Made by a program: the position numbers and the translations under genes
Shown here: positions 653 to 58,488 of the stretch, one piece after another
Numbering within the stretch: position 1 is the stretch's first letter
Layout: each line of letters begins with the position of its first letter
Source: an uncultured Lentisphaeria bacterium
GTDB taxonomy: Bacteria > Fidelibacterota > UBA8477 > JABMPR01
NCBI GenBank assembly: GCA_964578155.1
Contig: CAZOBQ010000002.1
Location: 54,872-118,871, forward strand
Direction of reading: 5' to 3'
Length of the DNA: 64,000 nt
The notes under the pieces: model-generated
What the model saw: only the letters and a program-made list of their open reading frames with translations
What the model was told of the DNA's origin: nothing
Database searches by the model: none

Positions 653-731
653 AAATGGTAATTAGCCACGGATGCCTGTATTGAGCAACGTCGAAATGAA
701 ACACTGATGAACAATAGAATATCTACTTTTA

Positions 732-808
732 GTCTTTGCGAGAAGCGTAGCGACGAAGCAATCTCGGACTTGAGATCGCCGCGCTCTTTTCAGTCGCTCG
801 CGAAGACC
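732..808. repeat. Imperfect palindromic repeat element (family R2)
   Basis: The ends gtctttgcgag (732-742) and ctcgcgaagac (798-808) are inverted complements at 10/11. The inner arms gcaatctc / gagatcgc are also complementary at 7/8. The 11-mer ctcgcaaagac recurs exactly at 6241-6251. It lies in the 220-nt spacer between the two EutN genes. Confidence 0.55.
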
Positions 809-872
809 AATCAAAAACCATCCATGAAAATCTGTGTAGATCAGTGGCTAAAGAAAGAAAAATGGTGAAATT

Positions 873-1148
873 GTGATCCTCGGTAAAGTTTGCGGAACCA
901 TCCACTCCACTATCAATCATCCCTTTTATGACGGGAAGCGCCTGCTGGTTGTTGATAAGCTGGATGCTTTTCAAAAACCTACTGGAAAATATTTGATCGC
1001 AATTGATAGCGTCGATGCTGGTGTGGGAGAAACGGTTCTCATGCTTGATGAGGGCAATGGTGCTCGTCAGATAGTTGGAGATTCCATGGCTCCGCTTCGT
1101 TCTGTCATCGTCGGAATTGTGGACGATGTTCATTTGTCACAAATTTAG
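873..1148 (+). CDS. EutN/CcmL-family BMC vertex protein (second paralog)
   Basis: 91 aa with a GTG start: MILGKVCGTIHSTINHP...KRLLVVDKL...IAIDSVDAGVGETVLMLDEGNGARQ...SVIVGIVDDV. Confidence 0.8.
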   Translation: MILGKVCGTIHSTINHPFYDGKRLLVVDKLDAFQKPTGKYLIAIDSVDAGVGETVLMLDEGNGARQIVGDSMAPLRSVIVGIVDDVHLSQI

Positions 1149-1178
1149 CAAATAATTCCATCACTCGTTATACTCAGT

Positions 1179-1203
1179 GCGTCATCCTGAGCCCGTCGAA
1201 GGA
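1179..1203. repeat. Dispersed repeat, family U (short form)
   Basis: gcgtcatcctgagcccgtcgaagga. The same core GTCAYSCTGAGCCYGTCGAAGG occurs at 7032-7057, 14483-14506, 22325-22348 and 58546-58569. Confidence 0.8.
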
Positions 1204-1217
1204 CAAAGCACGACGGT

Positions 1218-1511
1218 TCATTTCCGTTTACAGTATGCTGTAGATAAATCTGGCAACTGGTCATAGTTCTCGTTTATAAGGGCCATTTTCTTATCTCTAC
1301 GCCATCCCTTAACTTGTTTCTCGAGTACAATTGCATCTTGAATTACTAACTCATCCGAGATCCAAATCAATTTAAAGGGCCTTCGTTTAGACACATATGT
1401 GATTCCCTCATCCTCCTCGTGTTCGGCAAGCCGTCTTTCAATACTGTTTGTTATTCCTGTATAGAATGAACGATCAGAACATTCAAGGATATACACATAT
1501 CCTGTTTTCAT
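1218..1511 (-). CDS. GIY-YIG nuclease-domain protein (small, catalytic domain only; UPF0213/YhbQ-like)
   Basis: 97 aa: GYVYILECSDRSFYTGITNSIERRLAEH...LEKQVKGWRRDKK. The GIY and YIG elements and the conserved R/E positions are present. It is a paralog of the ORFs at 7902-8225 and 14032-14328. Confidence 0.85.
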   Translation of the reverse strand: MKTGYVYILECSDRSFYTGITNSIERRLAEHEEDEGITYVSKRRPFKLIWISDELVIQDAIVLEKQVKGWRRDKKMALINENYDQLPDLSTAYCKRK

Positions 1512-1581
1512 TATTGGACTCCAGATTTAGTAAATGGTTTCTGTAAAATAATTAACAAGCGTGTAATAGCAAGTTATGGAA

Positions 1582-1637
1582 GGTCGACCCTTCGACCTTT
1601 CGACTTCGCTCAAGACAGGCTTACTCAGGGTGACGAG
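1582..1637. repeat. Dispersed repeat, family U (long form, inverted relative to 1179-1203)
   Basis: ggtcgacccttcgacctttcgacttcgctcaagacaggcttactcagggtgacga. Its reverse complement starts tcgtcaccctgag and ends gtcgaaggg, which is the U core with an internal insertion of about 26 nt. A near-identical copy lies at 58489-58534. Confidence 0.8.
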
Positions 1638-1725
1638 ATACTTTTCACAACGAAAGATAGTGTACAAATCACCTTGGTGAAACTCCCTGAATAGTCTATC
1701 CTGTTACGGAAAATAAGGACCAAAT

Positions 1726-3141
1726 ATGAGTGATGTGATTAGAGGTGGTAAAGAAGGTTTAAAAAAGGGTCAGGATATTGAACTGACCATTGAAAGCCTA
1801 GCTTTTGGCGGTAAGGGAATGACCCATGTAGACGGCCTGGCTATTTTTGTTGAAAGAGTGATCCCCGGTCAAAAGGTCTTGGCTCGGATCGTTAAAAAGA
1901 AAAAGAGTTTTGCCGAAGCCTATCCTCTGGAAATCCTGGAAAAAGCTCCCAATGAGATCGAAGCAAAATGTCCTGCGTTTGGAACTTGTGGAGGCTGTCG
2001 TATCCAGAATCTGGAATATTCAGATCAGCTCAAGGAAAAAACCACCCAAGTTCGTGACCTGATCCAGCGAGTCGGTGGTTTTGAAGGTTTTGAAGTACCT
2101 GAAGCATTGCCATCACCATCAGAATTTCACTATCGTAATAAGATGGAATTCACCTTTACACCTAACCCATGGCGTAATCATCCTGATGATGAAGATGAAC
2201 CCATCGGTCTGGGACAACATATCCCAGGACGTTTTGATAAAGTCGTACATATCGAAACCTGTCATCTCCAAAAACCCATTATGAATGAGATCATGAATTT
2301 TGTGTTCGCTTTTGCCCAGGAACATGGCTGGGAAGCTTACAATAATAGAACCCATGTAGGTTGGGCACGTAACCTGGTGTTGCGTTATGGTGAACACACA
2401 GATGATATCATGGTTAACCTGGTTACCAAGACCTACGAAAAACAACACATGCAGGTTTTTAAAAAAGCCATTATGTCCCAATTTCCACAGATTAGCACGC
2501 TGATTAACAGCATTACCTCTAGGTTATCTGACGTCGCCATAGGTGAAACCGAGGTTTTCCTCCATGGACCAGGCAGCATCAGGGATCGCCTGGGCGAATC
2601 TGAATTTGAAATTTCTGCATCTTCTTTTTTCCAGACCAATACTCGCCAGGCAGAAGTGCTTTATGCCGAAGCTTTAAAGGGAACAGACCTAAAAGGTGGG
2701 GAAGTGGTCTATGATCTGTATTGCGGCACTGGCACCATTGCCTTGTTCCTCGCCAAACAAGCCAAAAAAGTGTATGGTTTTGAATTGATTGCCAGTTCTG
2801 TGAAGAATGCCCGCAGGAATGCCAAGGCACAGGGATTTGAAAATGTGGAGTTCATTCTGGGAGATCTCAAGGATGTCCTCTGGCAGAATGTGGACCGCAT
2901 TGAACCAGCTGATGTGATTGTGGTAGATCCACCTCGCGCAGGCTTACATCAGAAAGTGGTGGATGATATTCTGAATGTCGGACCCAAGAAGTTGGTCTAT
3001 GTCTCCTGTAACCCTTCAACTTTGGCTCGGGATCTTAAGTTATTTTGTGAAACCGATTATAAACTGTTGAGTGTTCAGCCGGTGGACATGTTTCCCCATA
3101 CAGCTCATATTGAAACGGTAGCACAGTTAGTTAAGCTTTAG
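1726..3141 (+). CDS. TRAM-domain, Fe-S-containing 23S rRNA (uracil-5)-methyltransferase, RumA/RlmD family
   Basis: 471 aa with an N-terminal TRAM-like segment. It carries the Cys cluster CPAFGTCGGCRIQN, the SAM-binding motif DLYCGTGTIAL, and VDPPRAG ... SCNPSTLARD. Confidence 0.85.
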   Translation: MSDVIRGGKEGLKKGQDIELTIESLAFGGKGMTHVDGLAIFVERVIPGQKVLARIVKKKKSFAEAYPLEILEKAPNEIEAKCPAFGTCGGCRIQNLEYSDQLKEKTTQVRDLIQRVGGFEGFEVPEALPSPSEFHYRNKMEFTFTPNPWRNHPDDEDEPIGLGQHIPGRFDKVVHIETCHLQKPIMNEIMNFVFAFAQEHGWEAYNNRTHVGWARNLVLRYGEHTDDIMVNLVTKTYEKQHMQVFKKAIMSQFPQISTLINSITSRLSDVAIGETEVFLHGPGSIRDRLGESEFEISASSFFQTNTRQAEVLYAEALKGTDLKGGEVVYDLYCGTGTIALFLAKQAKKVYGFELIASSVKNARRNAKAQGFENVEFILGDLKDVLWQNVDRIEPADVIVVDPPRAGLHQKVVDDILNVGPKKLVYVSCNPSTLARDLKLFCETDYKLLSVQPVDMFPHTAHIETVAQLVKL

Positions 3142-3146
3142 GCGAT

Positions 3147-3848
3147 TTGCATACAGAGACTAACAGATTGAGCCCAATTTCTTTTAAAGATTCATTTTTG
3201 GATCTGGCTCTCTACATCTCAGTCATGTTTTTGATTAGGGAAATATATTTTTCCAATGTCGGGTTTCTGACAAATGGTCTTTTTTGGTCATTATCCACTC
3301 TAGTGGTGGCAAGCTGGAGAATGAAAGTGCGAGGGGTGAGCTGGAAAGACTTGGGTTTACACAAACCTGAAAGTTATAAAAAAACACTGCTAATCTCAGG
3401 TGGGATTCTTGCCGTGACTCTAGTATCTATTGTCGTCTTCCATCTTATTAAGGATCAGATACCATTTTTGGTGGCTCCCGAATCCTCCCCAGAAGATAGT
3501 GGCTCTAAATTTGGCGACCTTAAAGGAAACTGGCTACTTTTCTTTTCAATAATTCCACTGGTTTTAGTCCAATCATTCTTGGAGGAACTCTTGGATAGAG
3601 GGTTCTTAATGAATTGGTTTGAACAGCTATTTTCAAAGACTTCTTTTGCCACAATCCTGGCCGTGTTAGTTCAGGCGGTGATTTTTGGTTTTAGGCATTC
3701 CCATGATCTATCAGAACGATCAATAACAGTCGCCCTTATTGGCTTAACGATGGGAACAGCCTATATGGTGTTTGGCCGAAATTTATGGCCATTAATTATC
3801 GCTCATGGTGTACTCAATACAATATCTATGGTTGGAAGAGTAAACTAA
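3147..3848 (+). CDS. CPBP-family intramembrane protease (CAAX/Abi type)
   Basis: Multi-TM protein with the three CPBP motifs: EELLDRGF, FGFRHSH and AHGVLN. The TTG start is uncertain. Confidence 0.7.
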   Translation: MHTETNRLSPISFKDSFLDLALYISVMFLIREIYFSNVGFLTNGLFWSLSTLVVASWRMKVRGVSWKDLGLHKPESYKKTLLISGGILAVTLVSIVVFHLIKDQIPFLVAPESSPEDSGSKFGDLKGNWLLFFSIIPLVLVQSFLEELLDRGFLMNWFEQLFSKTSFATILAVLVQAVIFGFRHSHDLSERSITVALIGLTMGTAYMVFGRNLWPLIIAHGVLNTISMVGRVN

Positions 3849-3929
3849 AAGTCCCAACGAATCTTACCTTTTGGCTCGTGATTTGTACCTCTAAAAGAGC
3901 TAGCAACTAAGACACTCAAAAAGGGGAAT

Positions 3930-4661
3930 ATGATGGACAATGAAATACTGATACTGATAGCAACAGCTGCTTCACTGGGCTTTTTTCACACCTTGTTAGG
4001 ACCAGATCATTATTTACCGTTTATCGTTTTGTCAAAGGCCAGAAAGTGGTCTACCGTAAAAACAATATGGATCACAGCCCTCTGCGGTTTGGGACACGTT
4101 GGCAGCACCGTGCTGTTGGGTTTGATTGGTGTTGGATTTGGTATCGGCTTAAAAAAGCTGGAAATTATTGAAACCTTTCGAGGAGACTGGGCAGCCTGGG
4201 GCTTTTTAATCTTTGGTGTAGCTTACCTCGTTTGGGCAATTTGGAAACTCAACAAAGGTACAGCCCATAAACACATTCATGCTCACGATCTTACGGTTCA
4301 CGTGCATCCTCATGACCATCACCATACAGCAGGGAGCATGTTGGAAACCAACCATACGCATCCTCACGAAGACAAATCCAAGAACATTACACCCTGGGTC
4401 TTATTTTTGATTTTTGTGCTGGGCCCTTGTGAGCCTCTCATTCCTGTGCTGGTTTATCCTGCTGCCCAGGAATCCATGGCTGGTCTCATTGCTGTAATAG
4501 CAACGTTTACCACTATCACCGTACTCACCATGGTGGGGATTGTGTTGGCAGTCAATTATGGGTTTTCGTTTATTAAAACCAGCAAGCTTGAAAAGTATGT
4601 ACATGTCATCGCTGGCGTAACCGTTATTCTTAGTGGAGCCTTGATTCTCCTGGGCCTTTAG
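3930..4661 (+). CDS. Putative Ni/Co-type metal transporter with a His-rich loop (HupE/UreJ- or RcnA-like signature)
   Basis: Six or seven predicted TM segments. The N-terminal GFFHTLLGPDH fits the H-x3-G-x-DH spacing. The central loop is HKHIHAHDLTVHVHPHDHHHTAGSMLETNHTHPHED. Confidence 0.4.
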   Translation: MMDNEILILIATAASLGFFHTLLGPDHYLPFIVLSKARKWSTVKTIWITALCGLGHVGSTVLLGLIGVGFGIGLKKLEIIETFRGDWAAWGFLIFGVAYLVWAIWKLNKGTAHKHIHAHDLTVHVHPHDHHHTAGSMLETNHTHPHEDKSKNITPWVLFLIFVLGPCEPLIPVLVYPAAQESMAGLIAVIATFTTITVLTMVGIVLAVNYGFSFIKTSKLEKYVHVIAGVTVILSGALILLGL

Positions 4662-4693
4662 ACAATAAATGGGTAAAGACTAAATAATCCTCG

Positions 4694-6073
4694 ATGTTCA
4701 TTAGCACACTAGAGCTATTTACTCTGGGAATTGGCCCCTCCAGCTCACACACCGTCGGACCAATGGTGGCTGCTGGTAGGTTTAGGGGGTTGTTAAAAGC
4801 AGAATTCACAAGCAGTAAAGCAGAAGAAAAACTACATCTTCAATGCACACTTAAAGGCTCCCTGTCCTACACGGGAAAGGGTCATGCGTCAGACAAGGCA
4901 ATTGCCCTGGGACTCCATGGTTTCACCCCGGAAAAATTACTAAATCAAAATGTAGATGACATTATCCAACAGCTCTGGACTCTTCCCGCCTTTAACGTTG
5001 GGGCTGACATTACAGTTAAGTTCTCACCTGAAAATGATATTCTATTTGATCGTGGTGAGCCATTACCTGAACATACCAACGGAATGATCTTTAGACTTGT
5101 AGATTCAACAGGAAAGATCATAAAAGAAGAGACCTATTTTTCCATTGGTGGTGGTTTTGTGCATACCCGGGTAAGAATAAATGCAATCGTAGCACCTCTA
5201 AAAATGGAATCTAGCAAAGGTACGCCCTATCCATTTGACTCGGCAAAACGGATGCTATCTCTGGCTAGGGAGAGCGGTTTTTCTATCGCAGCCATGAAGC
5301 GGGTCAACGAATTAGAATATATGTCGGAAGGAAAACTAAACCAGGGGCTTGATAGTATTTGGTCTGCCATGAAAGACTGTGTGGAAAGAGGTCTTAAGGC
5401 AGAAGGTGATCTCCCCGGGGGTTTGGGGCTCCAACGCCGAGCTGCTAAATTACACAAACAATTACTGGGCAATCCGGAGGATGGTAATGTCACCGACTGG
5501 CTCTGTGCCTACGCCATGGCTATTAGTGAGGAAAATGCTGCTGGTCATCCTGTCGTAACTGCTCCCACAAATGGAGCTGCTGGAGTGATACCCGCCATTT
5601 TGTATTACTGGACCGAGCATCGCAATGGAACCCTTGATCAGGTCCGTGATTTTCTATTATCTGCCGCTGCAATTGGTGGACTCATCAAGTTACGAAGTTC
5701 AATCTCCGGTGCTGAGGTGGGCTGTCAGGGGGAAGTTGGCTCTGCGTCATCAATGGCTGCGGCAGGCCTATGTGCCATACGCGGTGGAACACCAGAACAG
5801 GTTGAAAATGCTGCAGAGATCGCTCTGGAGCACCATCTTGGAGTCACTTGCGATCCTGTTAATGGACTGGTTCAGGTTCCCTGTATTGAGCGTAATGGTT
5901 TTGGCGCCATTAAAGCCTATACAGCAGCATCATTAGCTTTGCGGGGAACGGGACAACATTTTATGTCATTGGATAACTGTATTTCGGCCATGAAACAAAC
6001 AGGACTGGAAATGTCAGCAAAGTTTAAAGAGACCGCCCTTGGGGGCTTAGCGGTAAGCATTACCGAGTGTTAA
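4694..6073 (+). CDS. sdaA: L-serine ammonia-lyase (single-chain, iron-sulfur dependent)
   Basis: 459 aa with the hallmark N-terminus LFTLGIGPSSSHTVGPM and the later GAEVGCQGEVGSASSMAA motif. Confidence 0.9.
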   Translation: MFISTLELFTLGIGPSSSHTVGPMVAAGRFRGLLKAEFTSSKAEEKLHLQCTLKGSLSYTGKGHASDKAIALGLHGFTPEKLLNQNVDDIIQQLWTLPAFNVGADITVKFSPENDILFDRGEPLPEHTNGMIFRLVDSTGKIIKEETYFSIGGGFVHTRVRINAIVAPLKMESSKGTPYPFDSAKRMLSLARESGFSIAAMKRVNELEYMSEGKLNQGLDSIWSAMKDCVERGLKAEGDLPGGLGLQRRAAKLHKQLLGNPEDGNVTDWLCAYAMAISEENAAGHPVVTAPTNGAAGVIPAILYYWTEHRNGTLDQVRDFLLSAAAIGGLIKLRSSISGAEVGCQGEVGSASSMAAAGLCAIRGGTPEQVENAAEIALEHHLGVTCDPVNGLVQVPCIERNGFGAIKAYTAASLALRGTGQHFMSLDNCISAMKQTGLEMSAKFKETALGGLAVSITEC

Positions 6074-6239
6074 TTTCAACAAGTGGCTTGAACAAGGGTT
6101 AACCCTTTGTGAATAGCGCAGTTTTTCGGAACAAAGTCAAGTTTTCATCATATATTCTAACGATATTTATTAAGGTAAGGTCTGTTGGGACAGGTCGAAC
6201 CGGCGTGAATATCAATTGAAGAATGAAACGAATAAACCA

Positions 6240-6318
6240 TCTCGCAAAGACCGCAAAGGCAAATATTAATCAAAAAACACAAATGATTATACTCTGCATC
6301 TCTGCGCGCTCTGCGAGA
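6240..6318. repeat. Repeat element (family R2 copy)
   Basis: tctcgcaaag (6240-6249) and ctctgcgaga (6309-6318) are inverted complements at 9/10. ctcgcaaagac is the exact reverse complement of 732-742. Confidence 0.45.
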
Positions 6319-6351
6319 GAACACTTAAATATTTCCACAAGGAGTTAAATT

Positions 6352-6942
6352 GTGAAAAAGAGTACTATTGTAATTATTGCTATTGTGCTGGTGATCTTCT
6401 TAATGGTCAGTAATGCCATTGGAAAATACAACAGCATGGTCAGTCTCGAAGAAGGTGTAGACGCTGCCTGGTCTCAGGTCGAAAATGTCTATCAACGTCG
6501 TGCTGATCTTATTCCCAACTTGGTTGCCACAGTAAAAGGCTACGCTGAGCATGAACAAGAAACCTTTATCGCTGTTACTGAAGCCCGTTCCAAAGTTGGC
6601 AGTATCAACATGGAAGGTATGGCTGACAATCCTGCAGCTTTGCAGAAGTTTCAGGCCGCTCAGGGACAACTTACCAGTGCCTTGAGTCGACTTATGGTTG
6701 TGGTTGAAAAATATCCGGACCTGAAAGCCAATCAGAATTTTCTTAATCTCCAGACACAACTGGAAGGTACAGAAAACCGAATCTCAGTTGAGCGCAACCG
6801 GTTTAACAAAACGGCACAAGCATACAATACTGTGATCAGACGCTTCCCCGGATCAATGTACGCTGGCTTTTTTGGTTTTGATCGCAAAGCATACTTTGAA
6901 GCAGAGTCCGGAGCAGAAACAGCGCCCGAGGTTGAGTTTTAA
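6352..6942 (+). CDS. lemA: LemA family protein
   Basis: N-terminal TM segment followed by YNSMVSLEEGVDAAWSQVENVYQRRADLIPNLV. It has a GTG start preceded by AAGGAG. Confidence 0.85.
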   Translation: MKKSTIVIIAIVLVIFLMVSNAIGKYNSMVSLEEGVDAAWSQVENVYQRRADLIPNLVATVKGYAEHEQETFIAVTEARSKVGSINMEGMADNPAALQKFQAAQGQLTSALSRLMVVVEKYPDLKANQNFLNLQTQLEGTENRISVERNRFNKTAQAYNTVIRRFPGSMYAGFFGFDRKAYFEAESGAETAPEVEF

Positions 6943-6973
6943 TAAAAATTTGATAAGCAATGGTTCTGAGACA

Positions 6974-7057
6974 CTTCGACAGGCCTGTACTGAGCATGGT
7001 CGAAGTGCCCAGGGTGACAAGCTGCAAGAGTGCGTCATGCTGAGCCTGTCGAAGTAT
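6974..7057. repeat. Compound family-U repeat forming a long imperfect hairpin
   Basis: cttcgacagg (6974-6983) pairs perfectly with cctgtcgaag (7045-7054). ctgagcatg (6990-6998) pairs with catgctgag (7036-7044) at 8/9. An inverted U copy tcgaagtgcccagggtgac lies inside. Confidence 0.7.
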
Positions 7058-7102
7058 AGCACGGTCATTTATACAGATAACTGTTACAAAAAATGAGACA
7101 AA

Positions 7103-7837
7103 ATGAAATTAAATAAATACCTCCACCTTGCTTTGTTTTTATTCCTCACATCAAGCCTTATTGCTGATGGTATCTATCCCGACCGCATTAATAAGCATGT
7201 CAACGACTGGGCAGATATACTCTCTTCCAGCCAGGAAAGTCAAATTGAAAACGCTCTAAAGAAACACCAGGCCCAATCATCAAATCAGATCGTGGTAGCG
7301 ACGTTTCCATCCTTAGAGGGTGAAAGTCTTGAAGATGTTTCTGTGCGTATGTTTGAAGCCTGGAAGCTGGGTCAGTCAGGAAAAGATAATGGTGTATTGC
7401 TCAGCATTTTCAAGCAGGAACGAAAAATCCGAATTGAGGTTGGCTACGGTCTTGAAGGTGCCTTACCTGATATTACTGCCGGCAAAATCATTCGCAATGA
7501 GATCACTCCCCTTTTTAAGGAGGGTCAGTGGTATGGAGGTGTCGTTGCCGGGCTGAATGGAATTATTCAAGCAGTCCAAGGTGAATACACCGGCAGTGAC
7601 AGACCTCGTTCACAAAGACAAAAAGAAAAAAGTAGTCCCCTCGGCTTACTCTTTCCTCTAATCATTTTCTTACTTCTCGGTCGTGGTCGTATGGGTGGAC
7701 TTGGCGGCTTTTTTCTAGGATCCATGCTAGGCTCAGCCATGGGTGGCCGACACGGTGGTGGCGGTGGCTTCGGAGGAGGAGGATTCTCTGGCGGGGGTGG
7801 CTTTGGAGGAGGCGGAGGCGCTTCAGGCGGCTGGTAG
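7103..7837 (+). CDS. TPM-domain protein (YgcG-like) with a Gly-rich C-terminal tail
   Basis: Signal/TM N-terminus, then VNDWADILS...QIVVATFPSLEGESLED...GVLLSIFKQERKIRIEVGYGLEG. A TM segment and a GGGGFGGGG tail follow. This is the usual LemA-TPM pairing. Confidence 0.75.
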   Translation: MKLNKYLHLALFLFLTSSLIADGIYPDRINKHVNDWADILSSSQESQIENALKKHQAQSSNQIVVATFPSLEGESLEDVSVRMFEAWKLGQSGKDNGVLLSIFKQERKIRIEVGYGLEGALPDITAGKIIRNEITPLFKEGQWYGGVVAGLNGIIQAVQGEYTGSDRPRSQRQKEKSSPLGLLFPLIIFLLLGRGRMGGLGGFFLGSMLGSAMGGRHGGGGGFGGGGFSGGGGFGGGGGASGGW

Positions 7838-7844
7838 CAATCCC

Positions 7845-7869
7845 GGACATTGAGCTCGTCGAAATGTCC
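7845..7869. repeat. Hairpin repeat H1 (possible terminator of the TPM gene)
   Basis: ggacatt-gagctcgtcga-aatgtcc: a 7-bp stem with an 11-nt loop, 8 nt after the TPM stop codon. ttgagctcgtcgaaa (7850-7864) is the perfect reverse complement of 8194-8208. Confidence 0.7.
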
Positions 7870-7901
7870 AGTATTACATTATTAAGAAAAAGGAACGGCA
7901 A

Positions 7902-8225
7902 GTGTCAGTAGGGTATCTCTACATATTAGAGTGTTCTGATAGAACATTCTATACGGGCAGTACAAAAGATATCGAAATGAGAATGCAACAGCATCAAGCT
8001 GGAGAAGGCTCCATTTATACCAAAAAGAGATTGCCAGTAAAATTACTGTACGTAGAAGAATTTCCACGGATTGATGAGGCTTTCTATCGAGAGAAACAAG
8101 TTCAGGGGTGGAATAGGAAAAAGAAAGTTGCGTTGATGGAAGGTAAGGTGAAAGACTTGCCTGGCTTGTCTACCGCTTACTATAAAAAGGAGGTTTCGAC
8201 GAGCTCAACCTCCGGGTCTGGATAG
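7902..8225 (+). CDS. GIY-YIG nuclease-domain protein (paralog 2)
   Basis: 107 aa: GYLYILECSDRTFYTGSTKDIEMRMQQH...REKQVQGWNRKKK. The C-terminal ..EVSTSSTSGSG is encoded by repeat H2. Confidence 0.85.
   Translation: MSVGYLYILECSDRTFYTGSTKDIEMRMQQHQAGEGSIYTKKRLPVKLLYVEEFPRIDEAFYREKQVQGWNRKKKVALMEGKVKDLPGLSTAYYKKEVSTSSTSGSG
8189..8213. repeat. Hairpin repeat H2
   Basis: ggaggtt-tcgacgagctc-aacctcc: a 7-bp stem with an 11-nt loop. The loop is the reverse complement of the H1 loop. It overlaps the 3' ends of both the GIY-YIG gene and rseC. Confidence 0.7.
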
Positions 8226-8648
8226 CACTCTCACATTCAGATATTTTGAGGGGATCAGGTTTACCAATCTCTGGATCATATTTCGGGCAATAAAGAAGCT
8301 CGCACCCAACCCAAGCAATGCCACTATAAATGCGAGTAATTCTTTAGCTATGATGGTTTGGGGTATTATGTATCCAAAACCCAATCCTAACAAGAAAGCT
8401 ATCATAGGAATGCCAAATTGAATCAAAGCAAGATGAAGCTCTAGGTTTCCTATCTCTTCGATTTGAACCCTTTGGCCCACAGAATAATTCCCTCGAAAAG
8501 GGAGAGTTAATCTACGTTGGGAAGATTTCCCCGGGGCGCAGACCACCTTAAGACCACAAGTATCACAAGCGTCTTTTGTCTCAAAAGAAATAGCTATTTG
8601 GGTCTCTGTTATTTCTTGAATAACGCCACTTTCGCCGTTAAACAACAT
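8205..8648 (-). CDS. rseC: RseC/MucC-family protein (Rnf/SoxR-reducing-system associated)
   Basis: 147 aa. The N-terminal beta domain has CDTCGLKVVC, followed by two TM helices. It is the last gene of the rnf operon and overlaps the rnfB stop. Confidence 0.65.
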   Translation of the reverse strand: MLFNGESGVIQEITETQIAISFETKDACDTCGLKVVCAPGKSSQRRLTLPFRGNYSVGQRVQIEEIGNLELHLALIQFGIPMIAFLLGLGFGYIIPQTIIAKELLAFIVALLGLGASFFIARNMIQRLVNLIPSKYLNVRVLSRPGG

Positions 8649-9514
8649 CAGGCGCTGAGCACTTCTTCTTGAAAAACAGGTTCTACTTCAGTTTTGGGGA
8701 CAGACTCAATGAGAATAAGTGCATTTGTTGAGCACTTCTCTGTAGGCAATTCATGACCTTGGCCATAAAGCATGTAGTCAATACGTGCCAAATTATTTTC
8801 CAGGGTCATTAGCCCTTCATCCACACCTCTAACACACAAGGAGCATCCAACACAAGCCTTGATACAGACTTTACGAGAATCTTTTGGACTGTCCTCATTT
8901 TTACAGGCCACAAAAACAGTGTTGCTAACAGGATGCATTTCTATGATATGGCGAGGACAGGCTTCTGAGCAGTTACCACATCCCGTGCATTTTTCTTCAT
9001 CAACCACGGGTAGGCCATTATCGCTCATGCAAATGGCATCAAAAGGGCAAGAGTCAACACACTCACCGTAGCCCAGACAGCCATAGAGACAAAGCTTATC
9101 ACCTCCACTGGTAATATGTGCTGCAGTACATGTCTCAATACCCAGGTAGTTGCCCTTTTGAGCACTTTCATAGTCTCCACCCTGGCATAAGACTCGGGCA
9201 ACAATCTTTTCTCCCTTTTCTGCTTCAAGACCCATCACGCCGGCTATAGCTTCGCGAGCTTCATCATTACATACGGGACACCCACTGATTCCAATCTCAC
9301 CAGTAACAATATTTTGAGCAAAACTACTGCAACCGGGGAGGCCGCAACCACCACAATTAGCACCTGGGAGATTATCTTGTATTAATGCGATTCGGGGATC
9401 TTCTTCAACATGAAGCTTCTTGTTGGCAATAACGAGTCCAGAGGCAAAGAGTGCTCCGAGTCCACCCATACTTAGCATTGAAACAGCAATTGATGCCATA
9501 TCCATTTCAAACAT
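8648..9514 (-). CDS. rnfB: Rnf electron transport complex subunit B
   Basis: N-terminal TM segment, then NCGGCGLPGCSSFA, and multiple CxxCxxCxxxCP ferredoxin motifs. Confidence 0.85.
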   Translation of the reverse strand: MFEMDMASIAVSMLSMGGLGALFASGLVIANKKLHVEEDPRIALIQDNLPGANCGGCGLPGCSSFAQNIVTGEIGISGCPVCNDEAREAIAGVMGLEAEKGEKIVARVLCQGGDYESAQKGNYLGIETCTAAHITSGGDKLCLYGCLGYGECVDSCPFDAICMSDNGLPVVDEEKCTGCGNCSEACPRHIIEMHPVSNTVFVACKNEDSPKDSRKVCIKACVGCSLCVRGVDEGLMTLENNLARIDYMLYGQGHELPTEKCSTNALILIESVPKTEVEPVFQEEVLSA

Positions 9515-9524
9515 TCCTTATAGC

Positions 9525-10124
9525 TTAAATCATTCCAGCAAAACCCATGAAGGCGAGAGCTAAGGCTCCTGCAACGATCATGGTGATACCTGCTCCTTGA
9601 AAATACTTAGGTACGGGAGCCAACTCCAACTCCTCGCGAATTCCGGCCATAATTACCAGTGCGAGCGTAAAGCCAGCACCAGCACCCAGACCAAAGACGA
9701 CACTTTCAATAAAACCATAATCACGCAATACAGAGAAAAGGGCCAGACCGAGGATGGCGCAATTGGTTGTGATGAGTGGCAAATAAATGCCCAGCGTATC
9801 ATAAAGAGGTTTACTCACCTTGCGGATAAACATCTCGACCAACTGGACCAGAGATGCGATGACCAGAATAAAACTGACATACTCCAAGATCTCGACCTCA
9901 AAGGGCACCAGCAGTAAATGATAGATCAACCAGGTAACTACAGCAGTAATGAGCATAACAAATGTTACTGCCATTCCCATTGAGACAGCAGAGGAGACTT
10001 TTTTTGAAACCCCAACAAAAGGACATATTCCCAGGAAATAAGAAAGGACAAAATTGTTTACAATTGCAGCCGAAAAGAAAAGCAGGAAATAACTCACGAT
10101 GTGGCCCTCCAGTCGTTGTACCAA
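9525..10124 (-). CDS. rnfA: Rnf complex subunit A
   Basis: 199-aa polytopic membrane protein: NNFVLSYFLGICPF...LPLITTNCAILG. Confidence 0.9.
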   Translation of the reverse strand: MVQRLEGHIVSYFLLFFSAAIVNNFVLSYFLGICPFVGVSKKVSSAVSMGMAVTFVMLITAVVTWLIYHLLLVPFEVEILEYVSFILVIASLVQLVEMFIRKVSKPLYDTLGIYLPLITTNCAILGLALFSVLRDYGFIESVVFGLGAGAGFTLALVIMAGIREELELAPVPKYFQGAGITMIVAGALALAFMGFAGMI

Positions 10125-10705
10125 TTCGCTAGAGCGATCATCAATCCAAGCGTTAGAAAAGCACCCGGAGGAAGGATCATGATCATCCAGGGATTAAACC
10201 AATCTCCCATGACCGTAATTCCAAAAATAGATCCAGAGCCTAATACCTCACGAACGGACCCAAGGGCTACCAATACAAAAATAAACCCTAAACCCATCCC
10301 AAAGCTATCAACCAGAGAGCGTCCAATTCCATTTCGTGAAGAGAAGGCTTCCTGTCGGCCCAAGATGAGACAGTTGACTACGATTAGGGGAATATATGGT
10401 CCAAGTGTTGCGCTGATTTCAGGAAAGAAAGCAGCCAAAAAGCGATCTGCAACAGTCACAAAGGTGGCAATAATAACGATAAACCCGGCGATTCGAACTT
10501 GGTGGGGAATCACTTTTCGTAGCGCTGAGATCATGAGACTTGACATCACCAGAACAAAGGTTGTCGCCAAACCCATCGCTAAACCATTCATGGCGGCATT
10601 TGTAACTGCCAGGGTTGGGCAGAGACCCAACAGGCTGGCAATAACAGGGTTTTCCTTCCAGAGACCTTTGATGAACTCAGTCTTTAGCGGTACTGTTTTG
10701 CTCAT
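10094..10705 (-). CDS. rnfE: Rnf complex subunit E
   Basis: 203 aa: NPVIASLLGLCPTLAVT...IPLIVVNCLILGR. Confidence 0.9.
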   Translation of the reverse strand: MSKTVPLKTEFIKGLWKENPVIASLLGLCPTLAVTNAAMNGLAMGLATTFVLVMSSLMISALRKVIPHQVRIAGFIVIIATFVTVADRFLAAFFPEISATLGPYIPLIVVNCLILGRQEAFSSRNGIGRSLVDSFGMGLGFIFVLVALGSVREVLGSGSIFGITVMGDWFNPWMIMILPPGAFLTLGLMIALANWYNDWRATS

Positions 10706-11313
10706 GACTCCCGCCCTTCTGTGCTTGACAAGGTTTTTTGGACAGCCTTAATCTTGTCGTTAATGATTCGGGCAATCGCTTTGGAAGAAATGGTTGCACC
10801 TGTAATCCCTTGTACCTCATTATTTGCGCTTGGCTTTGCATTTTTCAGAACGACGATCTCAGGCGAAACGACAATCCCTTCAAACTGTTTTGGAAACCAA
10901 AAGGGGTCTTGTTTATTTGATGGGTCCACCACAATTTTAGTTCCCAGTCCAGGTGTTTCAATCTGTTCCAGAACCTTGATTCCGGTCAGCTTCATGAGAT
11001 CAGGTGTAAGTCCGACCATAATCCTGACCTCTCCCTGAAACCCACTTCCTATGGCCATAAATGCCACCCCGACAGGAGATTCAGCCAGGCTATCAGTTTT
11101 ACCAAAATAAAGAGTCCCCGTTTCCGTTTCTTGACTCTCATACATGCCATGGTCTGGTAGGACATGACCAATCGCCGCTTTCAGTGCTTGGAGACGATGG
11201 TAGGCAACCTTTGGCTTTGTATACATATCCCAACCGGCAAGTATGCCTCCGGATAAGACAGTTATAAGGGTCAACACCAGAATCATGCGTGTTGACAATG
11301 ATAAGTTGCTCAT
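10702..11313 (-). CDS. rnfG: Rnf complex subunit G (FMN-binding)
   Basis: N-terminal TM segment and an FMN-binding domain with the flavinylation motif GITGATISS. Confidence 0.8.
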   Translation of the reverse strand: MSNLSLSTRMILVLTLITVLSGGILAGWDMYTKPKVAYHRLQALKAAIGHVLPDHGMYESQETETGTLYFGKTDSLAESPVGVAFMAIGSGFQGEVRIMVGLTPDLMKLTGIKVLEQIETPGLGTKIVVDPSNKQDPFWFPKQFEGIVVSPEIVVLKNAKPSANNEVQGITGATISSKAIARIINDKIKAVQKTLSSTEGRES

Positions 11314-12356
11314 GCTCGCACCTCCCCAAAGAAAGCAGGACGGGTATAACGGTTAATAAGTGGTGTAAAGGCATTCATGAGCAGGATGGAATACATCACG
11401 CCTTCAGGTAATCCCCCAAACAGACGAATAATGACCAAAATAAAGCCACAGCCAATTCCAAAGATCCAGGAACCACGAGCAGTCACAGGGGAGGTTACCA
11501 TATCTGTTGCCATAAAAAAGGCTCCCAGCATTAATCCACCGCTAAATAGTTGAAATACAGGTGAAGGATACGACTCGGGAGAGGAGAGCCAGAACAAACC
11601 GCCAAACACAAAGACGGAAAGCAAGAAACTGAGTGGGATACGCCAATCTGCATATTTTCGAATCAAGAGATATAATCCGCCTATAAGAATCGCGATAGCA
11701 GATGTCTCTCCAAGGGACCCGCTAATATCTCCAGTTAGGAGAGCGGGTAATTCGCTGGTCACTTTTTCAAACTTGAACAATCCAAGAGGTGTTGCTGCAG
11801 TTATTCCGTCAATATCAGCATAACGCGTTGTTGAAGGCCAGGTCCAGGTAGTCATGGGAACTGGGAAGCTAGCCTGAAGAAAGGCACGCCCTAGGAGAGC
11901 GGGGTTAAAAATGTTATACCCTAGACCGCCAAAGACATGTTTTCCGATAACAATGGCAAAAACAGATCCCAGAACAGCTCCTCCTATAGAAAATGAAGGA
12001 GGTAGGGTCAGAGCTAACAATAGTCCGGTAATGGCGGCGGAGCCATCCGGTATGGTTAGTGATTCTCCTTTTATCCTGTTTACAATAGCTTCAGATGCGA
12101 GAGCGGCAAGCACTGAACTCAGAATAATTCCCACTGCAGCCCACTGAAAATAGATGCTAGCCATGACCACAGCTGGGACCAGGGCAAGAATCACATTCCA
12201 CATGATGCTTGGAACTGAATCCTTAGCATGGAAATGAGGAGATGAGGCTAGAACCAGAGGCTGATCAGGTATATATAATTTAGCCCGAGGATCTTTTTTC
12301 TTCTTTTCGGGTTTGGGTGCTGATTCAGGCTGAGATGATAAGTTATTATCCGTCAT
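11310..12356 (-). CDS. rnfD: Rnf complex subunit D
   Basis: 348-aa polytopic protein: SSPHFH...GYNIFNPALLGRAFL...FFMATDMVTSP. Confidence 0.9.
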   Translation of the reverse strand: MTDNNLSSQPESAPKPEKKKKDPRAKLYIPDQPLVLASSPHFHAKDSVPSIMWNVILALVPAVVMASIYFQWAAVGIILSSVLAALASEAIVNRIKGESLTIPDGSAAITGLLLALTLPPSFSIGGAVLGSVFAIVIGKHVFGGLGYNIFNPALLGRAFLQASFPVPMTTWTWPSTTRYADIDGITAATPLGLFKFEKVTSELPALLTGDISGSLGETSAIAILIGGLYLLIRKYADWRIPLSFLLSVFVFGGLFWLSSPESYPSPVFQLFSGGLMLGAFFMATDMVTSPVTARGSWIFGIGCGFILVIIRLFGGLPEGVMYSILLMNAFTPLINRYTRPAFFGEVRA

Positions 12357-12367
12357 AGATACTCCGA

Positions 12368-13729
12368 CTAGACCTGAGCTTTAAGTTTGTTTTGTTTTTC
12401 AGTCACCTTGACTTTGCCCACTCTAATCCATTGCACAAGTGGAATTCCAGATGGGCAGACAAAAGCACAGGAGCCACATTCAATACAGTTAAATACTCCC
12501 CACGCTTTACAGTCATCGTATTGAGCTGTCTCTGCTAATCGTGATATTCGAGTTGGTACCAGATTCATGGGACACACGCTCACACAGGTACCACACTGGA
12601 TACAAGGATATTGCCTGGATTTCTGAAGTTGAGTTGATTCAAGACATACAATTCCCGAGGTGGCTTTTAGCGTAGGGACATTGAGGTCATACTGGGCTAA
12701 ACCCATCATAGGTCCACCCATGAAAACTTGGGCTGTCTCACCCTTAAGTCCACCACAGGCATCCACACACACCTTGAAAGGAGTGCCAACTCGGGCGACA
12801 ATATTTCCAGGTTCATTGATGGCATCACCGGTGACAGTCAGCATTCTTTGAATAAGTGGTTTACCTTCTACGACAGCCTCATAAACAGCCAGTGCTGTGG
12901 CGATGTTGTTAACCACAACGCCAACATCCATAGGTAATCCACCTGCAGGGACTTTGCGACCTAGTGCAGCATCGATAAGCATTTTCTCCGCACCTTGTGG
13001 GTACTTTACCTTTAAGGGTTGGACTTTAAAATTAAGATTTAAAGCTGTACTTCGTGATTCCATTAGGGTGATGGCATCAAGTTTATTGCTTTCGATACCT
13101 ACAATGCCTTGGTCAACACCGAGAATCTTCATCATAATAGCCATTCCGTTAAGAATGCGATCCGTATCCTCCAGCATGTTGCGGTGATCACAAGTAAGGA
13201 AGGGCTCACATTCACAGCCATTTAAAATGAAAGTGTCAATGGGCTTCTCTTTTGGTGGAGCCATTTTGACATGAGTAGGGAAAGCTGCCCCTCCAAGACC
13301 TACGATTCCAGCCTCGCGAACGAATTGACGAAGTGTACTCGCCTCCGTAGTTTTCCAGTCATCCGGAGTGTCGAGTAACGCCCAGTTGTCTTCCTCTCCC
13401 TCTCGTTTGATGTGGATCATGGGAACTTTGCCACCAAGGGGATGAGGAAAAGATGCTACAGCATGTACCTTGCCTGTAATAGAAGCGTGAATTGGGCTAG
13501 AAACAAAAGCTTTGGTGTCAGCAATTTTTTGGCCGGTTTTTACAAAATCACCTTTTTCGACTAAAGCCTCACAAGGAGCCCCAATATGTTGCTGAAGGGG
13601 GATAAAGACCTCATCTGGCGCTGGTAAATCGCGTGATGCAATGTTACAGCTCAAGTTTTTAAATTCGTCAGGGTGAACACCACGACGAAAAGTGCTAACA
13701 GAGAGTGTGCTGGATTCAACCATAAGCAA
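12368..13729 (-). CDS. rnfC: Rnf complex subunit C
   Basis: 453 aa: GIVGLGGAAFPTHVK, NGCECEPFLT, and two 4Fe-4S motifs CIQCGTCVSVCP / CIECGSCAFVCP. The listed start is TTG. An in-frame ATG at 13723 is the alternative start. Confidence 0.9.
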   Translation of the reverse strand: MLMVESSTLSVSTFRRGVHPDEFKNLSCNIASRDLPAPDEVFIPLQQHIGAPCEALVEKGDFVKTGQKIADTKAFVSSPIHASITGKVHAVASFPHPLGGKVPMIHIKREGEEDNWALLDTPDDWKTTEASTLRQFVREAGIVGLGGAAFPTHVKMAPPKEKPIDTFILNGCECEPFLTCDHRNMLEDTDRILNGMAIMMKILGVDQGIVGIESNKLDAITLMESRSTALNLNFKVQPLKVKYPQGAEKMLIDAALGRKVPAGGLPMDVGVVVNNIATALAVYEAVVEGKPLIQRMLTVTGDAINEPGNIVARVGTPFKVCVDACGGLKGETAQVFMGGPMMGLAQYDLNVPTLKATSGIVCLESTQLQKSRQYPCIQCGTCVSVCPMNLVPTRISRLAETAQYDDCKAWGVFNCIECGSCAFVCPSGIPLVQWIRVGKVKVTEKQNKLKAQV

Positions 13730-13963
13730 ATTGCCCTTTTATAGATGGGTTGGAAACCATGATGCGAATTCTTCCACAAATCAGGATGTTCTTCATAGTG
13801 ATGGATTAGGGCAAAAATAAGACCAGTCGGACAGATTTATTGTTATTAGGGTAAGAAATTACTGATTAGTTAAAAGATTGTAAATAAAGCATGTAGGCGC
13901 ATAAATATTTACTAAATCAGTAGTTGACTATTGCAGGTATAATCAGATGAGTTAATCAAGTCC

Positions 13964-14025
13964 TCGTCATCCTGCCTGCCAAGTCGTAGTTCGATAGAAC
14001 GGAGACTGGAGGGAACTCGAAGGAT
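13964..14025. repeat. Degenerate family-U repeat
   Basis: tcgtcatcctgcctgccaagtcgtag...ggaactcgaaggat, immediately 3' of GIY-YIG paralog 3. Confidence 0.45.
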
Positions 14026-14031
14026 AATAAT

Positions 14032-14328
14032 TTAGACCTTTCTATCTCGGTATGGGATCGAAAGCTTCTTGAGTTTCTGAGTGTTACCAAAAATATAGGC
14101 CTCTTTTTTACCTCTACTCCACTCTTTGATCTGTTTCTCAAGAACAATTGCGTCTTGTATATCCATATCATCTGAATTCCAGATAAGCTTCACTGGACGA
14201 CGCGAATGCGTATATCCTCTAAAGTGACCACATTCATGCTGGAAAAGTCTTTGTTCAAGGTTGCTGGTTACCCCAGTGTAGAACGAACTATCTGAACATA
14301 TCAGTATATAAACAATACCTGTTTTCAT
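14032..14328 (-). CDS. GIY-YIG nuclease-domain protein (paralog 3)
   Basis: 98 aa: GIVYILICSDSSFYTGVTSNLEQRLFQH...LEKQIKEWSRGKK. Confidence 0.85.
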   Translation of the reverse strand: MKTGIVYILICSDSSFYTGVTSNLEQRLFQHECGHFRGYTHSRRPVKLIWNSDDMDIQDAIVLEKQIKEWSRGKKEAYIFGNTQKLKKLSIPYRDRKV

Positions 14329-14401
14329 ATTATCTCCAGTTGTGTTTTTGGTTGATTTAAAATGTATACAAAACTCACGAGAGACAAGAAATATTGTAGC
14401 A

Positions 14402-14439
14402 CTTCGAGATTTGAGCTTCGCTCAACCTCAGTGAGACGA
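14402..14439. repeat. Family-U repeat (long-form-like, degenerate)
   Basis: cttcgagatttgagcttcgctcaacctcagtgagacga aligns with 1591-1636 and 58489-58534. Confidence 0.5.
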
Positions 14440-14482
14440 AATGGGTGTATCTCTCAAGGTCGAGACGAGAGAATCAAAACCT

Positions 14483-14520
14483 CGTCATCCTGAGGTGTCC
14501 GAAGGACAGTCTCGAAGGAT
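14483..14520. repeat. Family-U repeat (short form) with duplicated tail
   Basis: cgtcatcctgaggtgtccgaagga followed by cagtctcgaaggat. Confidence 0.7.
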
Positions 14521-14540
14521 CAAGGTTTACAAAGAAGTAA

Positions 14541-14563
14541 GAGATTTCGGCGAGCTCAATCTC
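14541..14563. repeat. Hairpin repeat H3 (possible terminator of the DUF4139 gene)
   Basis: gagatt-tcggcgagctc-aatctc: a 6-bp stem, with a loop that differs from the H2 loop at one base. It lies 10 nt downstream of the stop codon of the 14574-15911 gene. Confidence 0.6.
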
Positions 14564-14573
14564 CAAATAAACA

Positions 14574-15911: not shown

Positions 15912-15946
15912 ATTTATCTCCTGATTTATCTTTTCAAGCTAATGCG

Positions 15947-16684: not shown

Positions 16685-16754
16685 GCAAAGGGTGAATGCT
16701 AAATGCTATTTGATTTAACTCAGCCAGATAGCTTGGAAAAGGAACTAAATTCTC

Positions 16755-16783
16755 TTGACAATGTTCTACCGTACTAGTACATT
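16755..16783 (+). promoter_or_regulatory. Putative sigma70-type promoter of the trp operon with an embedded palindrome
   Basis: TTGACA (16755-16760), a 17-nt spacer, then TACATT (16778-16783). The perfect palindrome GTACTAGTAC (16771-16780) overlaps the spacer and the -10 element. Confidence 0.35.
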
Positions 16784-58457: not shown

Positions 58458-58488
58458 GGGTTTTGATCTCGATTCAACGGTTGAGATG

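Follow-up and report, generated by a model that had tools for sequence, protein, structure and literature searches.

The window analysed here is a stretch of 64,000 nucleotides (nt) from contig CAZOBQ010000002.1 of an uncultured Lentisphaeria bacterium (GTDB lineage Fidelibacterota). The source genome belongs to the marine group Candidatus Neomarinimicrobiota (Marinimicrobia, SAR406), and ENA and JGI metagenomes contain contigs identical to it. Its first 15 kb carry three short genes, P1, P2 and P3, each coding for a GIY-YIG nuclease and each lying between inverted copies of a small DNA hairpin. On balance, we believe that each gene and its hairpins form a cassette of the kind known from the Ssn nucleases, in which a predicted nuclease for single-stranded DNA (ssDNA) hairpins is combined with a unit that is copied and lost.

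Three GIY-YIG genes and their hairpins

The three genes lie at the following positions:

1218-1511, minus strand: P1, gene for a 97-amino-acid (aa) single-domain GIY-YIG nuclease (Pfam PF01541, E 8.8e-15).
7902-8225, plus strand: P2, gene for a 107-aa GIY-YIG protein, GTG start (PF01541, E 1.5e-17).
14032-14328, minus strand: P3, gene for a 98-aa GIY-YIG protein (PF01541, E 2e-15).

An initial annotation, made from the sequence alone, had described these open reading frames (ORFs) as three paralogs of 97-107 aa consisting of the catalytic domain only, and this description holds. PF01541, the GIY-YIG catalytic domain, is the sole Pfam match in each protein and covers residues 4-75; pairwise identity is 42-58%, and the catalytic-type residues Y7, Y17, R27, H31 and E64 (P1 numbering) are invariant across the three. 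By their sequence divergence, P1-P3 are old paralogs. The closest solved structures are those of UPF0213 BH0048 (PDB 1zg2, E 8e-12) and EF2693 (1ywl, 5e-8). A tblastn search of the whole 64-kb window found no further GIY-YIG copy, searches of the proteins against NCBIfam, PADLOC and PHROGs gave no meaningful match, and 2.9 million viral contigs held one distant relative only. P2 starts with GTG here and with ATG in its ortholog at locus L092, and its final ~11 codons are encoded by its own right hairpin.

An enzyme of this type has been studied in Neisseria meningitidis: SsnA, a 94-aa single-domain GIY-YIG protein (CDD cd10448), is encoded by a gene flanked by inverted hairpin repeats called NTS (CGTCATTCCCGCGMAVGCGGGAATCYRG), an NTS-ssnA-NTS architecture whose repeat was generalised as the SRM pattern (Chenal et al., Nat Commun 2025, PMC11893778). 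SsnA binds the hairpin only as ssDNA and on one strand, cuts a few nt upstream (5') of it, is inactive on double-stranded DNA (dsDNA) and RNA, and lowers transformation by NTS-bearing DNA; the stem sequence matters for recognition, the loop is dispensable, and the substitutions Y6A, Y17A and E64A abolish cutting (PMC11893778). Those positions, Y6, Y17 and E64, correspond to Y7, Y17 and E64 of P1-P3. Membership of the Ssn family was defined by a top CDD match to cd10448 (GIY-YIG_unchar_3) and a blastp E<1e-10 to SsnA (CAX49033.1), and the authors noted a likeness to insertion sequences (IS) and to repetitive extragenic palindromic (REP) elements with their associated tyrosine transposases (RAYT), mobility being hypothesised only (PMC11893778). 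The idea of mobility and of a REP-RAYT-like arrangement, put forward in the initial annotation, is largely anticipated by that paper, and the kind of system is already known.

The hairpins that flank the three genes in the window are these:

1180-1203, plus strand: short-form terminal hairpin of P1, a CGTCA tag followed by TCCT GAGCCCGTCGA AGGA, 15 bp past the P1 stop codon.
1588-1635, minus strand: long-form terminal hairpin of P1, CGTCA, CCCT, GAG, a nested CTT GAGCGAAGTCGA AAG, TCGA and AGGG, ~75-125 bp upstream of the P1 start.
7842-7869, plus strand: left terminal hairpin of P2, CCC GGACATT GAGCTCGTCGA AATGTCC, 7-bp stem.
8189-8216, minus strand: right terminal hairpin of P2, CCC GGAGGTT GAGCTCGTCGA AACCTCC, with compensatory changes in the stem relative to the left copy.
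13964-14031, plus strand: terminal hairpin of P3, CGTCA, TCCT, G, a 41-nt insert, CTCGA, AGGA and TAA, directly after the P3 stop codon.
14400-14439, minus strand: upstream terminal hairpin of P3, CGTCT, CACT, GAG, an extended inner stem (gt TGAGC gaa GCTCA aatc), TCGA and AGTG.
14483-14520, plus strand: CGTCA-tagged unit or units TCCT GAGGTGTCCGA AGGA (with CAGTCTCGAAGGA), forming a [-][+] doublet with 14400-14439.
14540-14564, minus strand: P2-type hairpin, GGAGATT GAGCTCGCCGA AATCTC(T).

All repeats that the initial annotation quoted are found where it placed them, bracketing each gene, and their number is far beyond chance: GTCAYCCTGAGNNNGTCGAAGG with at most three mismatches has 5 copies in the window against 0.01 expected, and a second repeat pattern has 2 matches against 0 expected. 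The division into two families, U and H, did not survive. A structural scan merges both into a single class of hairpin, in which the stem varies with covariation of its two arms, closes on T·A and encloses the core GAG-N4-5-TCGA; across the wider data set the core reads T-GAG-[S-N2-3-S']-TCGA-A, the stem has 4-8 bp, and a CGTCA tag is often present on the 5' side.

The structure is carried by covariation, for which units were detected through the core alone, ignoring the stem, to avoid circularity. In the 355 unique units obtained, pairing at stem positions 1-4 reaches 91-95%, against 17-48% in shifted controls; it is 77-79% at positions 5-6 and at background level from position 9 onward, and several Watson-Crick pair types are seen at each stem position. 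The inner S..S' pair covaries too (CG 157, GC 153, TA 9, each non-complementary combination at most 3). Around P2, the perfect 15-bp inverted repeat reported earlier (7850-7864 and 8194-8208) is confirmed and extends to 28 nt that are 86% complementary, the differences between the two hairpins, CCCGGAcaTTGAGCTCGTCGAAatgTCC and CCCGGAggTTGAGCTCGTCGAAaccTCC, being compensatory changes in the stem; the GGACATT stem of the left copy recurs at many loci in relatives. Folded as ssDNA, the units with 7-bp stems adopt the proposed structure (-4.8 and -5.3 kcal/mol, z -2.3 and -1.7), and the solo doublets listed below form long hairpins (about -18 kcal/mol, z about -3). In the long forms (1588-1635, 58487-58534, 14400-14439 and 13964-14031) the inner loop has given way to a longer insert, which in several cases is itself a complete unit; the P1 long form has a 91% identical copy at 58489-58534. 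The inner C-GNA-G and two-base C-YT-G loops resemble stable DNA mini-hairpins. Hammerhead-like and tRNA T-arm-like readings of CUGAG..GUCGAA were dropped, as the core does not fit them.

Could the hairpins instead act at the level of RNA, as structures in 5' or 3' untranslated regions, as attenuators or as terminators, and in this way control the GIY-YIG gene and the genes beside it? The intergenic positions, often at operon ends, would suit such a role, as would those units that stand ~10 nt before a start codon and offer GAGG as a potential ribosome-binding site. We nevertheless consider it very improbable. The flanking copies lie on opposite strands, so only one can be present in the sense transcript; solo hairpins are found in either orientation; there is no T-run; C-GNA-G and two-base inner loops are typical of DNA mini-hairpins. 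Rfam has no family at gathering thresholds in the whole window and none even at E<=1 in 600-15000, and SsnA does not bind RNA (PMC11893778).

Hairpins accompany the genes, and their types match

Beyond the gene-flanking hairpins, the window holds solo units at five further places:

679-698, plus strand: solo unit TATT GAGCAACGTCGA AATG between two EutN/CcmL genes, absent from the initial annotation.
6973-7057, plus strand: solo cluster between lemA and a TPM gene, with CGTCA-tagged units at 6987-7008 and 7033-7057.
22325-22348, plus strand: solo CGTCA-tagged unit CCCT GAGCCCGTCGA AGGG, intergenic.
25430-25448, minus strand: solo unit with a G..C inner pair, GGCT GAGGTTCTCGA AGCC, intergenic, in a degenerate repeat patch (25395-25490).
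58487-58569: solo intergenic doublet, a long form at 58487-58534 (minus strand) and a short form at 58546-58569 (plus strand).

The cluster at 6973-7057 includes a partial inverted copy at 6973-6984 and folds as ssDNA into one long hairpin (-18.8 kcal/mol, z -2.8); in the doublet at 58487-58569 the arms likewise pair with each other (-18.1 kcal/mol, z -3.2). The solo copy that the initial annotation had placed at 25395-25490 reduces to the one clean unit listed, the remainder being weak.

In the window, 14 of 15 units are intergenic, in DNA that makes up 8.7% of the sequence. A GIY-YIG gene is no more than 300 bp away from 8 of the 15, with a binomial probability of 5e-8 over the whole window and of 1.1e-3 when the comparison is restricted to intergenic DNA. 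P1, P2 and P3 are each bracketed as [+hairpin]-gene-[-hairpin] with the CGTCA tags outermost. Because this arrangement is its own reverse complement, it says nothing about the orientation of the gene; a sense hairpin upstream and an antisense one downstream, taken as an orientation signal, was rejected, since it is unchanged by reverse complementation. The doublets at 58487-58569 and 14400-14520 have the opposite order, [-][+], to the [+][-] of the gene flanks.

The association extends far beyond this genome. We assembled 79 loci (1.12 Mb) from a species-representative genome collection, centred on homologs 45-81% identical, from Bacteroidota, Marinimicrobia, Lentisphaeria, Ignavibacteria, Planctomycetota, Spirochaetota, Leptospiraceae, a bacterium of the candidate phyla radiation (CPR) and a metagenome-assembled genome (MAG) of the Cardiobacteriales. 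They contain 379 exact hairpins, against 0 in shuffled sequence. Hairpin density is 4.51/kb within 150 bp of GIY-YIG genes and 0.152/kb elsewhere, a 30-fold difference; in intergenic DNA only, 5.9 and 0.39 hairpins/kb still differ 15-fold. At least one flanking hairpin stands at 67 of the 71 scorable genes, and [+]gene[-] is the commonest configuration (28 genes). The initial annotation had proposed a statistical test of co-localisation, with equal frequency of the repeats away from the genes as the contrary outcome; the repeats are not equally frequent there.

Protein and hairpin types are matched as well. Proteins that share a loop type have an identity of 0.67, against 0.53 for proteins of different loop types, a difference to which shared descent of whole cassettes contributes and which was reached in 0 of 2000 permutations. 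The Sphingomonadaceae provide a test of the matching that is independent of taxonomy: at locus L102 CGTTC-tagged GAGCGAAGTCGA hairpins of the GAG/TCGA class flank a window-type (type-B) protein that shares 40-48% identity with P1-P3, whereas canonical-type homologs in Sphingobium (L106 and L108) have CGTCACCCCGGGCTTGACCCGGGGTCCCG, a repeat of the published SRM pattern, on both flanks. Among Marinimicrobia, the P2 orthologs (window and L092) retain a GGACATT-stem hairpin and the P1 orthologs retain GTCAYSCT-type hairpins. P1-P3 score 71-88 bits against alphaproteobacterial proteins that have the same hairpins. The SRM regular expression finds both flanks of the two Sphingobium homologs, and one chance match in the window (26447-26475), far from any GIY-YIG gene. 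To judge from these sequence comparisons, proteins of the P1-P3 type form a clade separate from the canonical SRM-flanked homologs and have a distinct class of hairpin.

These results bear on a second alternative, in which the hairpins are a generic REP-like family of terminators or structural elements, kept by the host or by another enzyme, and the GIY-YIG genes are passengers or homing-type genes that prefer hairpin-rich operon ends. Solo hairpins and doublets do stand where relatives have plain terminators, intergenic DNA far from any GIY-YIG gene still has 0.39 hairpins/kb, and CGTC-tagged REPs have been described without a dedicated enzyme (PMC3733652). Against this, the 15- to 30-fold enrichment at the genes holds across phyla, protein and hairpin types are matched even within one bacterial family, the hairpins are the boundaries of the cassettes, and no other conserved gene is associated with them. 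We regard this alternative as improbable.

Some features of the loci deserve mention in their own right. The unit in Bacteroidales is larger than in Marinimicrobia, with a [-H][+H] doublet (stems GGTGGCT and TGCCT) both before and after the gene (L020 9830-10420, L080 860-1450, L056 620-1200, L041 9830-10420), so that the two flanks repeat a doublet directly and, at the same time, contain single hairpins as inverted repeats. A homolog of hsdM, the methylase gene of type I restriction-modification (R-M) systems, lies within 3 kb of the GIY-YIG gene and always on the same strand in 17 of the 79 loci (L012, L018, L021, L026, L031, L035, L038, L040, L041, L052, L053, L055, L072, L073, L080, L081, L082; the GIY-YIG gene is at about 10001-10280 in the full-length ones). 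In six loci of different phyla, Pfam matches bear out the presence of HsdM upstream and/or HsdS downstream, and at L012 the GIY-YIG ORF continues in frame into hsdS through a hairpin-encoded linker; P1, P2 and P3 lie outside any type I R-M context. GIY-YIG ORFs often read through the downstream hairpin or array (window 8189-8225; L055 10001-10489; L024, L032, L012, L014), which gives low-complexity tails (..EVSTSSTSGSG in P2, ..LSHPEVSLPEALEGKALEG.. at L055) and makes the ORF look fused in frame to the gene that follows. Such extensions are probably artefacts of annotation and not real domains, and hairpin read-through would account for what is annotated on many proteins of this kind, C-terminal tails of low complexity (..PEALEG.., ..STSSTSG..) and 'fusions' in frame.

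The remaining observations concern the surroundings. The window begins inside a bacterial microcompartment locus with two EutN/CcmL genes (69-1148), and the same source contig further along (L001 10364-16461) encodes microcompartment shell proteins, an aldehyde dehydrogenase and a DeoC/RpiB-type protein. Ahead of lemA (6352-6942), the non-coding leader at ~6110-6351 contains blocks conserved in a dozen Marinimicrobia loci whose upstream genes differ, among them cgttttcacggaacaa, catcatatattc, aggcaagatcaattgggatagatcgaac and catttccacaaggagttgaatgtg; it has no Rfam match at E<=1 and is possibly an unrecognised cis-regulatory element. A direct-repeat family of CTTCTTC-rich 31-mers at 32399-32585 lies inside a coding region and is probably a low-complexity acidic or lysine-rich protein segment unrelated to the hairpins.

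Gain, loss and copying of cassettes

We compared site states in 19 metagenome loci syntenic with window positions 1-17,800. The initial annotation had suggested looking for presence/absence polymorphism among relatives, and the sites of P1, P2 and P3 are each polymorphic among syntenic Marinimicrobia, none of the three cassettes being fixed:

P1 site (EutN/trmA): cassette in the window, L004/L090/L091 and L005/L098; plain terminator hairpin in L083, L088 and L099; gene-less hairpin pair in L084/L085 and L087.
P2 site (TPM/RseC): cassette in the window and L092.
P3 site (RnfC/g445): cassette in the window only; plain terminator hairpin in L087, L088, L090 and L092; gene-less hairpin pair in L083, L084 and L089.

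The gene-less pairs are related to the cassettes. At the P1 site of L084, the ends of the element are both ends of the window's P2 cassette, matching over 26 of 28 and 22 of 24 nt, otherwise variable stems included, and they stand only 22 bp apart. Several other loci of related genomes have similar gene-less doublets of ~70 bp whose left end is of the GGACATT type.

The limits of a copied unit are clearest in two MAGs, where P3-like cassettes stand at four unrelated positions (one each in L009 and L010, two in L011). The four cassettes are 70-80% identical from CGTCATCCCGAGCGGAGTCGAGGGATAA to its inverse TTATCCCTCGACTCCGCTCGGGATGACG, a unit of 362-386 bp that begins and ends in perfect 28-bp, CGTCA-tagged terminal inverted repeats (TIRs). 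The flanking DNA is unrelated in all four, and similarity ends at the 5' edge of the CGTCA tag. In one cassette of this group a 29-nt nested unit replaces the 5-nt inner loop of the right repeat; the window's P3 has its 41-nt insert in the same TIR end, 13964-14031 being an end of the L009 type with its inner loop replaced. Filled and unfilled inner loops can be compared directly among the L009, L010 and L011 cassettes (e.g. L011 3178-3209), which suggests that the apical loop of the hairpin may itself be an insertion target and that the long forms may arise by replacement of the inner loop (2-5 nt).

Taken together, these sequence comparisons support the view that the gene and its two hairpins are a discrete, TIR-bounded unit of about 360 bp or more that is copied or lost. 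No publication on the mobility of such cassettes, or on miniature forms of them, turned up in a literature search, and the comparisons appear to be the first evidence found for their gain, loss, copying and miniaturisation. The proposal in the initial annotation that the GIY-YIG proteins mobilise the repeats, or that the cassettes are themselves mobile, is supported in part, by the polymorphic sites, the TIR-bounded copies and the gene-less doublets; that the nuclease itself drives the spread of cassettes and repeats is a further step, which it may take.

A third alternative, the main rival, accepts the enzyme and denies it self-mobilisation. Here the nuclease would be a domesticated host function that cuts hairpin-marked ssDNA, such as transforming or conjugative DNA or replication and repair intermediates, for recombination control or defence; the hairpins would spread otherwise, for instance by recombination between dispersed copies, and the gene would lie between hairpins for regulation or by descent. 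A host role is the only one shown by experiment for the related Ssn family (PMC11893778). It would also fit the 17 of 79 homologous loci inside type I R-M operons beside hsdM, the vertical inheritance of P1 in three lineages and the age of the P1-P3 paralogs, and dispersed [+]..[-] doublets could serve as landing pads for recombinational copying. On the other side stand copy units that end exactly at perfect 28-bp TIRs in unrelated loci, gene-less derivatives with both cassette ends, nested insertions and the lack of a PADLOC match; all of these are more typical of selfish elements and at the same time compatible with a host role. We consider a host function without self-mobilisation rather unlikely, yet a serious rival.

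Predicted mode of action and relation to known systems

If P1-P3 act as Ssn-like nucleases within copied units, the reading we prefer, then the likely substrate of each enzyme is its own flanking hairpin, whenever the DNA is single-stranded or the hairpin is extruded, as may happen during replication, by transcription-driven extrusion or upon DNA uptake. If it works as SsnA does, the enzyme would recognise the folded hairpin on one strand only and introduce a nick a few nt to the 5' side of the CGTC-type tag. As the two hairpins of a cassette are inverted, two nicks are predicted, just outside the cassette and on opposite strands, and these predicted positions coincide with the points where similarity between cassette copies ends. 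Solo hairpins and the ~70-bp gene-less doublets would be non-autonomous relatives of the cassette. Re-insertion may proceed through host repair or copy-choice, annealing at other hairpins, or recombination into existing [+]..[-] doublets.

Several observations weigh against this reading. As to the enzyme, P1-P3 are 33-37% identical to a canonical SRM-flanked Sphingobium homolog, our proxy for SsnA (40-57 bits), and score 53-67 bits against UPF0213 BH0048; a profile of the window-type clade scores both outgroups, canonical SRM-flanked and UPF0213, about equally. The SRM pattern, HGTCWYN(0-2)YYVSBRHN(0-5)WNVSBRGN(0-2)RNCYNB, matches none of these hairpins, with 0 matches near GIY-YIG genes in about 100 loci, and recognition must differ from that by SsnA, because here the core is conserved and the stem varies. 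As to the hairpin, units with 4-bp stems are thermodynamically indistinguishable from shuffled sequence, so that the case for them rests on covariation. As to mobility, no target-site duplication or direct repeats were seen at cassette flanks, and no clean insertion junction was seen between filled and empty sites in the window's relatives: a terminator stands at the cassette position in the 'empty' sites, which look replaced and not simply interrupted. P1 is syntenic in three lineages (orthologs at the site are 71-81% identical, neighbouring genes 88-92%), the three paralogs are old at 42-58% identity, and the key nodes of a trmA neighbour-joining tree, with 6-69% bootstrap, are too weak to separate gain from loss. 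GIY-YIG enzymes are, to our knowledge, not known to catalyse strand transfer.

A bolder version goes further. The gene and its two hairpins, down to 362 bp, might be an autonomous transposable element of a new class that a hydrolytic GIY-YIG nuclease moves via ssDNA, and the solo hairpins and ~70-bp doublets might be non-autonomous forms of this element. Its enzyme would then be the missing type for CGTC-tagged repeats, and the element would be spread across Bacteroidota, Marinimicrobia, Alphaproteobacteria, Planctomycetota, Spirochaetota and CPR, often in type I R-M operons. We offer this tentatively, as a possibility about which we are more doubtful than convinced.

Short of that, the Ssn-like reading has consequences of its own. 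Since the published SRM pattern misses the GAG/TCGA hairpins, the reach of nuclease-repeat pairs has been underestimated, including in most Bacteroidota and in SAR406. The TIR-bounded units turn the mobility of cassettes, and the mover of CGTC-type REPs, into directly testable questions, and each paralog with its hairpin is a candidate sequence- and structure-specific ssDNA endonuclease for biotechnology. The hairpin core strings did not occur in the literature searched. Setting the cassettes beside known systems, we find the following likenesses and differences:

(i) UPF0213/YhbQ/YazA proteins, the bacterial Slx1-like, stand-alone GIY-YIG proteins, share the same minimal domain and size and give the best structure matches. 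We know of no flanking hairpins in this group, and none were seen around a Legionella YhbQ-like gene (locus L107).

(ii) Free-standing GIY-YIG homing endonucleases (I-TevI, Seg) are likewise GIY-YIG nucleases in the form of selfish mobile genes, but they have DNA-binding domains, cut dsDNA at the cognate allele, lack TIRs and are borne by phages or introns.

(iii) DDE-type IS and miniature inverted-repeat transposable elements have terminal inverted repeats, as do the cassettes (28 bp in L009, L010 and L011, 28 nt around P2 in the window). Unlike them, the cassettes show no target-site duplication, and their only ORF is a GIY-YIG nuclease, with no recognised transposase.

(iv) IS200/IS605 elements, moved by the Y1 transposase TnpA in a 'peel and paste' manner, also make no target-site duplication and have subterminal hairpins that are recognised as ssDNA, which is here proposed. 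Both of their hairpins lie on the same strand and their ends are not inverted, and they use a covalent tyrosine intermediate where a hydrolytic nick would be expected in the cassettes.

(v) REP and REPIN elements with RAYTs resemble the cassettes in having short, tagged, palindromic, intergenic repeats, doublets that fold into longer structures, and a few-copy enzyme gene between inverted repeats, and to this extent the comparison drawn in the initial annotation, in architecture and association, was apt. It fails at the enzyme and the tag: RAYT is an HUH Y1 (IS200-like) tyrosine transposase paired with a GTAG tag, whereas the cassettes have GIY-YIG proteins, a CGTCA tag and several diverged paralogs per genome.

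(vi) CGTC-tagged REPs, whose lack of a dedicated transposase has been stressed (Di Nocera et al. 2013, PMC3733652), share a 5' CGTC (CCTC/TGTC) tag followed by A, a C-rich 5' arm and head-to-head dimers. Theirs is an 8-9-bp stem with a 4-5-nt loop and a CCA tail; the hairpins described here have a 4-8-bp stem, a core of 11-12 nt or longer and no CCA tail.

(vii) Ssn systems share a single-domain GIY-YIG protein of ~90-110 aa (97, 107 and 98 aa in P1-P3) with no auxiliary domain and the same Tyr/Tyr/Glu positions; a gene between inverted, hairpin-forming repeats of 20-50 nt, further copies of which are scattered through intergenic DNA, frequently arranged as doublets, as for all three window genes; and a 5' CGTC-type tag that orients the hairpin in Marinimicrobia and alphaproteobacterial copies. 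They differ in that the 8-bp stem of NTS is conserved and its 4-5-nt loop dispensable, whereas in the hairpins here the GAG/TCGA internal loop is conserved, the stem varies and an inner mini stem-loop is present; in that several paralogs per genome occur here, each with its own hairpin subtype; and in that the window-type clade comes with comparative evidence for gain, loss and copying. The nuclease/hairpin principle of Ssn would extend in this way to a second protein clade with a structurally different cognate hairpin.

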